A stretch of 64,000 nt of DNA, from the NCBI RefSeq assembly GCF_003334335.1, contig NZ_QOWQ01000008.1; one strand, 5' to 3'. The stretch comes from Escherichia coli (lineage in GTDB: Bacteria; Pseudomonadota; Gammaproteobacteria; Enterobacterales; Enterobacteriaceae). Positions within the stretch are counted from its first letter, which is position 1. The number at the start of each line of letters is the position of its first letter. Shown in pieces: positions 35,701-38,700 of the stretch. A program made the position numbers.

Positions 35701-38700
35701 ACTGGCCCGCAAACTGGACGCAGTAGTAGAAGACTGCGTAAACGCCGTTGGCGTCGATCTCAACACTGCTTCTGTTCCGCTGTTAACCCGCGTGGCGGGC
35801 CTGACGCGCATGATGGCGCAAAACATCGTTGCCTGGCGCGATGAGAACGGTCAGTTCCAGAACCGTCAGCAACTGTTAAAAGTGAGCCGTCTGGGGCCGA
35901 AAGCCTTCGAGCAGTGCGCGGGCTTCTTGCGCATTAACCACGGTGATAACCCGCTGGACGCGTCTACCGTTCACCCGGAAGCCTATCCGGTGGTGGAACG
36001 CATTCTGGCAGCAACACAGCAGGCACTGAAAGATCTGATGGGTAACAGCAGCGAACTGCGTAACCTGAAAGCGTCTGACTTTACTGATGAGAAATTCGGT
36101 GTGCCGACGGTAACCGACATCATCAAAGAGCTGGAAAAACCGGGTCGCGATCCGCGTCCGGAATTTAAAACCGCTCAGTTTGCCGATGGCGTCGAGACAA
36201 TGAACGACCTGCAACCGGGTATGATCCTCGAAGGCGCAGTGACCAACGTCACCAACTTTGGCGCGTTTGTCGATATTGGCGTGCATCAGGACGGCCTGGT
36301 TCACATCTCTTCATTGTCGAACAAGTTTGTGGAAGATCCGCATACCGTGGTGAAAGCGGGCGACATTGTGAAGGTGAAAGTGCTGGAAGTGGATCTTCAG
36401 CGTAAACGTATCGCCCTGACTATGCGCCTGGATGAGCAGCCTGGCGAAACCAACGCTCGTCGCGGCGGCGGTAATGAACGCCCGCAAAACAACCGCCCGG
36501 CAGCCAAACCACGCGGTCGTGAAGCGCAGCCTGCCGGTAATAGCGCGATGATGGATGCGCTGGCGGCGGCAATGGGCAAAAAACGTTAAACGCCCGTACT
36601 GGCCTACGGTTCGAATTTGCACGAAATCGTAGGGCAGATAAGGCGTTCACGCCGCATCTGGCAACGAACGCCTTGCCTGACATAAAAGTGCCGGAGAATA
36701 TCTCCGGCATTTTTATTCCACAGCCAAACTCATAATATATTCCGGCAATATTTATCATTTCATTAACAACTGAAACCTTAATTAAACATTAGCCAGTCCG
36801 GGTAATTCACTATTCGAATTATATTTTCGCTGCGATATAACCTTGAGCCACATCAACATTGAGTCAGATTATTATTCAAACCAACATTCGCACACATTTT
36901 AAGTATTGCTGATAGAAACCATTCTCATTATCATTGTGTTGTTGATTATTTAATCTCTCCTTTGTTGGCAAATCATCTGGTCTCATGTCGCTGTCAAACG
37001 CCCCATGAGGTAGTTATCCAGTTAATGAGAAACAAGTAGGCACCTATGCAATACACTCCAGATACTGCGTGGAAAATCACTGGCTTTTCCCGTGAAATCA
37101 GCCCGGCATATCGCCAAAAACTGCTTTCTCTTGGCATGTTACCTGGCTCCTCTTTTAATGTGGTGCGCGTCGCTCCACTCGGCGACCCCATTCATATCGA
37201 AACCCGTCGTGTGAGCCTGGTATTACGCAAAAAAGATCTGGCCTTATTAGAAGTGGAAGCGGTTTCCTGTTAATACGGTGATAACAACAATGAAAAAATT
37301 AACCATTGGCTTAATTGGTAATCCAAATTCTGGCAAGACAACGTTATTTAACCAGCTCACTGGCTCACGTCAGCGTGTAGGTAACTGGGCTGGCGTTACC
37401 GTCGAACGTAAAGAAGGGCAATTCTCCACCACCGATCATCAGGTCACGCTGGTGGACCTGCCCGGCACCTATTCTCTGACCACCATCTCATCGCAGACCT
37501 CGCTCGATGAGCAAATCGCCTGTCACTACATTTTGAGTGGCGACGCCGACCTGCTGATTAACGTGGTGGATGCGTCTAACCTTGAGCGTAACCTGTACCT
37601 GACGCTACAACTGCTGGAACTCGGCATTCCCTGCATTGTGGCACTGAACATGCTCGACATTGCCGAGAAGCAAAATATTCGTATTGAAATTGATGCTCTG
37701 TCGGCGCGTCTGGGCTGTCCGGTGATCCCGCTGGTTTCAACCCGTGGTCGCGGTATTGAAGCGCTCAAGCTGGCGATTGATCGCTATAAAGCTAACGAGA
37801 ATGTGGAACTGGTGCATTACGCACAGCCGCTGCTCAACGAAGCAGATTCACTGGCAAAAGTGATGCCTTCCGACATCCCGCTGAAACAACGTCGCTGGCT
37901 GGGCCTGCAAATGCTGGAAGGCGATATCTACAGCCGCGCCTACGCCGGTGAAGCGTCGCAGCATCTGGATGCCGCCCTCGCCCGTCTGCGTAATGAGATG
38001 GACGATCCGGCGCTGCACATTGCCGATGCGCGTTACCAGTGCATTGCTGCCATCTGTGATGTGGTAAGCAACACCCTGACGGCAGAACCCAGCCGTTTCA
38101 CCACTGCGGTAGATAAAATCGTGCTCAACCGTTTCCTCGGTCTGCCGATTTTCCTCTTTGTGATGTACCTGATGTTCCTGCTGGCTATCAACATCGGCGG
38201 GGCGTTACAGCCGCTGTTTGACGTCGGCTCCGTGGCGCTATTTGTGCATGGTATTCAATGGATTGGCTACACGCTCCACTTCCCGGACTGGCTGACTATC
38301 TTCCTCGCCCAGGGCCTGGGTGGCGGCATTAACACCGTGCTGCCACTGGTGCCGCAGATTGGCATGATGTACCTGTTCCTCTCCTTCCTTGAGGACTCCG
38401 GGTATATGGCGCGTGCGGCGTTTGTGATGGACCGTCTGATGCAGGCGCTGGGCTTGCCGGGGAAATCCTTTGTGCCGCTGATCGTCGGTTTCGGTTGTAA
38501 CGTACCGTCGGTAATGGGTGCACGTACGCTTGATGCACCGCGTGAACGTCTGATGACCATCATGATGGCACCGTTTATGTCCTGCGGCGCGCGTCTGGCT
38601 ATCTTCGCAGTATTCGCGGCTGCCTTCTTCGGGCAGAACGGTGCGCTGGCGGTCTTCTCGCTGTATATGCTGGGTATTGTGATGGCGGTGCTGACTGGCC

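Follow-up and report, generated by a model that had tools for sequence, protein, structure and literature searches.

Enteric bacteria at low oxygen import ferrous iron mainly through FeoABC, which contributes to gut colonization. The subject here is the DNA immediately upstream of feoA, the first gene of the operon, in a 64,000-nucleotide stretch of an Escherichia coli genome (RefSeq assembly GCF_003334335.1, contig NZ_QOWQ01000008.1); "the window" below means that whole stretch. Two families of described promoters serve for comparison. In classical Fur-repressed σ70 promoters, such as those of fepA, fhuA, and iucA, an array of overlapping Fur sites with a 6-bp offset lies between the −35 and −10 elements and covers the −10, and repression depends on Fe2+–Fur; the feoA promoter has all of these features. 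FNR-activated promoters carry the activator site either at −41.5 (class II, for example nirB and narG) or, in the class-I-type arrangement, near −61.5 to −92.5. The closest described system of all is the feoA promoter of E. coli K-12 (Kammler 1993; Chen 2007; Myers 2013; Park 2013; Beauchene 2015; Gerken 2020), which is the very same locus with no sequence differences. The Fur operator and the control of feoABC are therefore already known: descriptions go back to 1993, and chromatin immunoprecipitation (ChIP) on a genome-wide scale has refined them. The present analysis is mainly corrective: it places the FNR site, the transcription start, and the extent of the leader, and it finds that most of the AT-rich DNA bears published or proposed sites. 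What it adds to the known promoter is comparative, namely a near-invariant Fur/−10 core, an FNR site fixed at −91.5, and a leader whose length is free to vary from ~34 to 119 nt.

Over positions 36560–37080 of the window (521 bases) the sequence shows 100% identity to that of E. coli K-12 MG1655, and this identity, together with the feoABC gene order, upholds the original prediction that the stretch is the feoABC control region. Subtracting 3,503,117 from NC_000913.3 coordinates gives those of the window, and U00096.2 coordinates at the feoABC locus equal current coordinates minus 1978, with the FNR site serving as the calibration point. Each published coordinate for the feoA promoter falls on a motif found in this analysis. 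The region singled out in the original prediction, 36700–37045, makes up most of the 456-bp yhgF–feoA spacer and is as AT-rich as had been claimed, with a G+C content of 0.30–0.35 per 100-nt segment over 36700–36999 as against 0.5–0.66 in the neighboring genes. The reading that we favor, with a probability of roughly 0.9 for the reading as a whole, is that this stretch is the feoABC promoter/operator region, followed by a 105-nt 5′ untranslated region.

The transcription start of feoABC was placed by Mendoza-Vargas et al. 2009 (PMC2760140) at −105 from the feoA gene start by 454 sequencing, with one read, and the same study located the −35 element within GTATTGCTG and the −10 element within ATTATCAT, separated by a 17-bp spacer. 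In window coordinates, the −35 hexamer TTGCTG lies at 36906–36911, the −10 hexamer TATCAT at 36929–36934, and the start at 36941 (36940 by the numbering of Park 2013), all on the plus strand. This start agrees both with the position of the −10 and with the ArcA numbering of Park, −191 to −171. Conservation was calculated throughout from 27 Enterobacteriaceae upstream regions with the E. coli positions as reference; by this measure the TTG of the −35 reaches 0.9 and the −10 hexamer 0.8–0.9. Moreover, Shimada et al. 2014 reported a peak for the RpoD holoenzyme in genomic SELEX (systematic evolution of ligands by exponential enrichment), along with an H-NS mark, in the yhgF–feoA spacer. Our promoter scan missed the real feoA promoter because its rule requires four of six matches in the −35, whereas TTGCTG has three. 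We propose that a σ70 promoter consisting of TTGCTG, a 17-bp spacer, and TATCAT starts feoABC transcription at ~36941. With a −35 matching at only three of six positions, this promoter would be weak alone and would rely on upstream-bound anaerobic activators: FNR, centered at −91.5, together with ArcA and OmpR, both near −180.

Because transcription starts at −105 (36941), the transcribed leader is 105 nt long (36941–37045, plus strand). Close to its end lies a Shine–Dalgarno motif, AAGTAGG (37034–37040, plus strand), which was read from the sequence, stands 5 nt before the ATG, and is 0.8–0.9 conserved across genera. The leader of ~330 bp that had first been proposed is accordingly too long: ~225 bp of it is untranscribed upstream regulatory DNA, and its start coordinate, 36700, falls inside the terminator hairpin of yhgF.

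The main Fur operator occupies 36911–36938, as judged from the sites of Chen 2007, consensus matches, and published binding. Relative to the start at 36941 it spans −30 to −3, filling the spacer between TTGCTG and TATCAT and overlapping the −10. The Fur-box string gatagaaaccattctcattatcattg lies at exactly 36911–36936. Fur sites were scored against the 19-mer consensus GATAATGATAATCATTATC with composition-matched controls, and were set beside the published scores of Chen 2007. The consensus is matched at 13 of 19 positions at both 36914 and 36920, which overlap and lie 6 bp apart, and at 12 of 19 at 36908. A consensus match alone is modest evidence. Fifteen positions in the 64-kb window reach 13/19, and a lone match of this quality occurs in 20% of random 329-mers with the composition of 36717–37045; two such matches 6 bp apart occur in 1.8% of them. 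It is the published binding and regulation, combined with near-invariance across genera, that establishes the site as real. Two Fur sites listed by Chen et al. 2007 (PMC2189734) fall inside this box, one of 10.9 bits at 3538059 (window 36920) and one of 13.4 bits at 3538065 (window 36926); a further cluster, at 3538006 (window 36867), has 10.5 bits and covers one of the boxes of Kammler. According to the citation of Kammler 1993 in that paper, two Fur boxes had been marked and Fur bound in vivo. Binding of Fur to the main operator has since been published from both ChIP-exo (ChIP with exonuclease treatment) and ChIP-seq, as has Fur-dependent repression of a lacZ fusion. Gao et al. 2023 presented the ChIP-exo signal upstream of feoABC as an example of binding near the −10 and −35, and Beauchene et al. 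2015 found that a feoA–lacZ fusion is repressed by Fur, visibly so only under anaerobic conditions, which they attributed to the requirement for activation by ArcA and FNR.

Across the Enterobacteriaceae regions compared, AAACCATTCTCATTATCATTG within the operator is nearly invariant (0.8–0.9). The upstream Fur cluster, around AGATTATTAT at 36858–36876, comprises the 10.5-bit site at 36867 and consensus matches of 11/19, and its conservation is moderate (0.7–0.9 over 36866–36872). The Fur box first noticed at 36911–36936 is a genuine, published operator, and its sequence, its overlap with the promoter, and its conservation all agree with this. Transcription starts 105 nt before feoA, and regulation linked to the Fur motif has been published. 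In the mechanism that we propose, Fe2+–Fur occupies the array of overlapping sites that fills the promoter spacer and extends across the −10 (36911–36938); a weaker cluster lies at 36858–36876. Bound Fur would probably exclude RNA polymerase when iron is sufficient, and iron repression would act through ATTCTCATTATCAT. Two features set this promoter apart from classical Fur-repressed promoters. Its sites, at 13/19 and 10.9 and 13.4 bits, are modest compared with the 25–27 bits of ryhB or gpmA (Chen 2007, PMC2189734), and its repression can be seen mainly under anaerobic conditions, because the promoter needs activation by FNR and ArcA.

That feoABC is also under anaerobic FNR control, as had been suggested, was borne out, at a different site from the one proposed. 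The real site, TTGAGCCACATCAA, lies at 36843–36856, is bound in ChIP, and is centered at −91.5 from the start. In the FNR ChIP-seq data of Myers et al. 2013 (PMC3688515) a peak stands at 3537996 (window 36857); Table S6 of that study gives TTGAGCCACATCAA as the predicted site under the peak, at 3537982, flagged "+". We built an FNR matrix from the 62 other ChIP-bound sites of this table, leaving the feoA site out. With this matrix TTGAGCCACATCAA scores 15.7 bits and ranks first among the 63,987 positions of the window; for the sites used in training, the minimum is 12.1 and the median 15.8 bits. It matches TTGAT-N4-ATCAA at nine of 10 positions, and among the 27 Enterobacteriaceae the half-sites are conserved while the 4-bp spacer is free to vary. 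The FNR-like motif of the original prediction, ttgattatttaatc, lies instead at 36942–36955, some 100 bp farther downstream, and corresponds to +2 to +15 of the transcript. Its left half agrees with TTGAT at five of five positions, but its right half, TAATC, agrees with ATCAA at none. Given its score of −13.5 bits, which puts it at rank 7057 among the positions of the window, and its location at +2 to +15, we conclude that it is not an FNR site. A weaker FNR-like sequence, TTGAGTCAGATTAT (36859–36872, 9.0 bits), was also observed 16 bp downstream of the real site, where it overlaps the upstream Fur cluster; this overlap could let Fur and FNR compete.

The feoA promoter resembles FNR-activated promoters in its 9/10 site, its ChIP-seq occupancy, and its anaerobic induction, and differs from those of class II in having the site at −91.5 rather than −41.5. 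In the data of Myers 2013 (PMC3688515), the expression change of feoA was masked by Fur under the conditions used, which placed the gene in their category 4. The distance between the FNR site and the Fur box is strict across genera, at 70–71 bp, and a fixed distance from FNR to the core suggests face-dependent, class-I-type activation. We infer that FNR may activate in a class-I-type manner, with its site at −91.5 on a constant face of the helix, which is unusual for FNR. If this is true, feoA would be an unusual natural example of a class-I-type FNR promoter.

Farther upstream, the ArcA site TTGTTAATGAAATGATAAATA (36749–36769, minus strand) overlaps the OmpR/RstA-like motif TTATCAtttcaTTAACA (36752–36768). 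Park et al. 2013 (PMC3798270) reported an ArcA ChIP peak and a site at U00096.2 3537888–3537908, −191 to −171, together with a 3.7-fold ArcA-dependent activation. For OmpR, Gerken et al. 2020 (PMC7315122) observed a shift, in electrophoretic mobility shift assays, of a fragment containing TTATCAtttcaTTAACA (−294 to −278 from the ATG). Unphosphorylated OmpR did not shift a smaller fragment, in which only one of the pair of predicted motifs was present; lacZ expression rose 2-fold with OmpR. The second motif proposed in that study is CCAACAttcgCACACA, and its authors relate both motifs to the Salmonella RstA box. This second motif, at 36881–36896, is a candidate OmpR/RstA site and the counterpart of the Salmonella box TACA-N6-TACA. 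The TTAACA part of the ArcA/OmpR site is 0.8–0.9 conserved, and ACATTC and CACA are conserved at the position of the RstA box, where Salmonella has TACATTCCGTCACA. Adjoining the ArcA site is a block, CTGAAACCTTAATTAAACATTAG (36770–36792), with a conservation of 0.6–0.8 in Escherichia, Salmonella, Citrobacter, Klebsiella, Raoultella, and Kluyvera. To judge by its sequence, it may hold additional ArcA direct repeats, imperfectly spaced at 11, 9, and 11 bp. Hence the expectation that this DNA leaves room for further regulatory inputs proved apt, the inputs being ArcA, OmpR, the second Fur cluster, and probably an RstA-type box. Anaerobic activation would come from this upstream DNA, through FNR at 36843–36856, ArcA at 36749–36769, and OmpR on the fragment that carries the overlapping motif.

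The comparison with other genera used a degenerate DNA pattern for the FeoA peptide, which retrieved 120 Enterobacterales loci, of which 112 were usable. The Fur/−10 core is kept in 53 of these 112. Among the 53 core-bearing loci, an FNR-like site matching at least eight of 10 positions is centered at −91.5 or −90.5 from the inferred start in 33, and four more have a 7/10 match there; their leaders are 33–119 nt long, apart from a single one of 222 nt. The conservation footprints are discrete and coincide with the published sites. They include one continuous block, 36905–36952, that takes in the TTG of the −35, AAACCATTCTCATTATCATTG, the −10, and TGTTGATTATTTA. The Salmonella feoA promoter, with its RstA box, is also among the closest described systems. 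Its upstream region aligns over the full length and has the same Fur/−10 core and the same FNR site, and it carries a TACA-N6-CACA box at E. coli positions 36883–36896. No demonstration of RstA control in E. coli was found in the literature consulted. Yersinia upstream regions, by contrast, lack the core motif and give poor alignments. The shortest leaders, of only 33–35 nt, belong to seven loci from the Enterobacter cloacae group, Leclercia, Pseudescherichia, and Silvania. These four genera lack the equivalent of 36962–37033 (~70 nt) but retain promoter, Fur box, and FNR spacing. Within E. coli, the query was matched in all 5,426 complete genomes and most of it in 5,397; variation is concentrated in the REP-like part next to yhgF and in 36720–36815, and the promoter core and leader are nearly invariant.

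Several points weigh against the promoter/operator reading as set out here. The start is a single 454 read from one growth condition, and we found no start data for anaerobic or iron-limited cells in the literature. Chen 2007 (PMC2189734) states that Fur had not been footprinted on the feoA promoter, so that the exact limits of the operator given above are inferred. With its FNR site at −91.5 the promoter departs from the usual class II position of −41.5, and the mode of FNR activation is for this reason not established. Finally, Yersinia pestis reportedly has two feo promoters, one of which spans a putative FNR site.

Of the alternatives, the one that survives best places a post-transcriptional element in the 105-nt leader, either a hairpin module at 36965–37030 or the 5′ end at 36941–36955, that would be the target of a small RNA, a protein, or an RNase. 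We regard this as unlikely, although several observations speak for it. The leader is almost invariant within E. coli, and the block CAGTTAGCGA is conserved. A weak hairpin, UCUCAUG..CAUGAGG (36981–37010, plus strand), appears in the centroid structure, and a hairpin of different sequence recurs at the same place in eight of the other loci, with Klebsiella, Raoultella, Kluyvera, and Pluralibacter among the genera concerned. One apparent compensatory change, C–G to U–A, distinguishes Escherichia from the Pluralibacter/Enterobacter CC120223 group. Over 37 distinct sequences the folding z score of the mid-leader is below −1.64 in nine, but the mean is −0.83; in E. coli the mid-leader has a z score of −0.81 and the whole leader one of +0.76. 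RNAalifold applied to 21 genera returned 0 pairs and no consensus leader structure. The module is, moreover, absent from the four genera with short leaders, which keep the promoter, and the effects of CsrA on feoABC are among those that Potts 2017 deems mostly indirect. Two further candidates in the leader were set aside. Pairing of the 5′ element with the Shine–Dalgarno sequence AAGUAGG had a mean probability of 0.41, as against 0.50 when the first 22 nt were shuffled, which also speaks against the 5′ end as a regulatory element of this kind. A small open reading frame (ORF) of seven codons at 36985–37008 has no ATG in Salmonella and lies in another frame in Citrobacter, and is a by-product of a CATG palindrome.

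The conserved element at +2 to +15, where the FNR-like motif had been proposed, deserves separate mention. Its core, TGTTGATTATTTA (36940–36952), reaches a conservation of 0.7–0.9 in many genera, among them the ones whose leader is only 34 nt long, and a CAT/CAT/CAT/../GAT periodicity of 6 bp can be read in the sequence from the Fur box as far as 36946. The element is best interpreted as the downstream tail of the Fur hexamer array, which is the least certain point of our interpretation; instead, or in addition, it may be the initial transcribed sequence. It is conceivable, if doubtful, that TGTTGATTATTTA, the mid-leader hairpin module (~36965–37030), or both could bind an undescribed regulator of feoABC, whether protein or small RNA.

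The original prediction had also allowed for a small RNA in the leader, and this idea found no footing: there is no Rfam match near the gathering score in the spacer, z scores are near zero, no consensus structure emerged, and ~70 nt of the leader are missing from four genera. The upstream 224 nt have z scores of −0.76 (plus strand) and −1.07 (minus strand). A search for a small-RNA promoter and terminator found that the sole terminator-like hairpin in the spacer is that of yhgF; the one promoter-like match, on the minus strand at 36763–36734, is at chance level (1 observed vs. 1.6 expected).

A second promoter is the next alternative, and a distinctly unlikely one in either of its two forms. 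One is the hexamer pair predicted by Shimada, TTATCA-15-TTTAAT (36928–36933 and 36949–36954), whose −10 would lie inside ttgattatttaatc, and the other an FNR-dependent start farther upstream, near 36890–36896. In favor of the former, the RpoD-holoenzyme SELEX peak in the spacer was reported with that hexamer prediction (Shimada 2014). A 15-bp spacer and TTTAAT would nonetheless make a poor promoter, and the resolution of SELEX is low. In favor of the latter, −91.5 is an odd position from which to activate, Salmonella and Citrobacter have TACATT at 36884–36889, and the report of two promoters in Y. pestis, cited above, offers a parallel. With TACATT as the −10, however, the FNR site would be centered near −46 and not at −41.5. 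We found no published start for either form, and Mendoza-Vargas 2009 (PMC2760140) lists only −105 for feoA. The strict 70–71-bp spacing between the FNR site and the Fur box, in addition, argues that FNR acts on the mapped promoter. Since class-I-type action from −91.5 is unusual for FNR, a second, FNR-dependent start retains some small likelihood.

The third alternative, that all 330 bp are a transcribed leader with a Fur box, a weak FNR motif at ttgattatttaatc, and room for a small RNA, is hardly credible: its Fur box is real and its ttgattatttaatc element is conserved in many genera, but the start lies at −105, the yhgF terminator stands at 36682–36716, ttgattatttaatc scores −13.5 bits at +2 to +15, a position from which no activator can work, FNR has its real site at 36843–36856, and there is neither an Rfam match at the gathering score nor an excess of fold stability on either strand.

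The intrinsic terminator of yhgF (ATAAAAGTGCCGGAGA / TCTCCGGCATTTTTAT; 36682–36716, plus strand) is formed by inverted repeat I3, whose 16-nt arms are 94% complementary and enclose a 3-nt loop, with an A-run before the stem and a T-run after it. The terminator scan reported this hairpin on the minus strand only, and the T-run of the plus strand was read from the sequence. With an A-run on one side and a T-run on the other, the terminator looks bidirectional. Between it and the yhgF stop codon lie REP-like imperfect palindromes (36589–36684; inverted repeats I1 and I2), which have no part in feo control. The palindromes themselves and a sub-threshold Rfam match to naRNA4, the best that Rfam gave (32 bits against a gathering score of 59.5), are the sole grounds for calling them REP-like; a REP consensus did not match with up to three mismatches allowed. 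Weak Rfam matches fall on these palindromes and on the terminator. The REP-like part has a second matching place in most E. coli genomes and is partially deleted in strain GN05652.

The gene order around the spacer, from the ORF list and the RefSeq annotation, is greB, yhgF (34268–36589), feoA (37046–37273, plus strand), feoB, feoC, rpnA, and bioH. In the mechanical ORF list feoB begins with the GTG at 37278; RefSeq places the start at an ATG 12 nt later, at 37290, which is 16 nt past the feoA stop. Among the related loci, that of Citrobacter amalonaticus (L100) shows a change of the FeoA frame after residue 63, which is either a frameshift or an assembly error. Mendoza-Vargas 2009 (PMC2760140) additionally lists 454-derived starts at +284 within feoB and at −107 from feoC. 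These starts, inside feoB and before feoC, hint at internal promoters in the feoABC operon.

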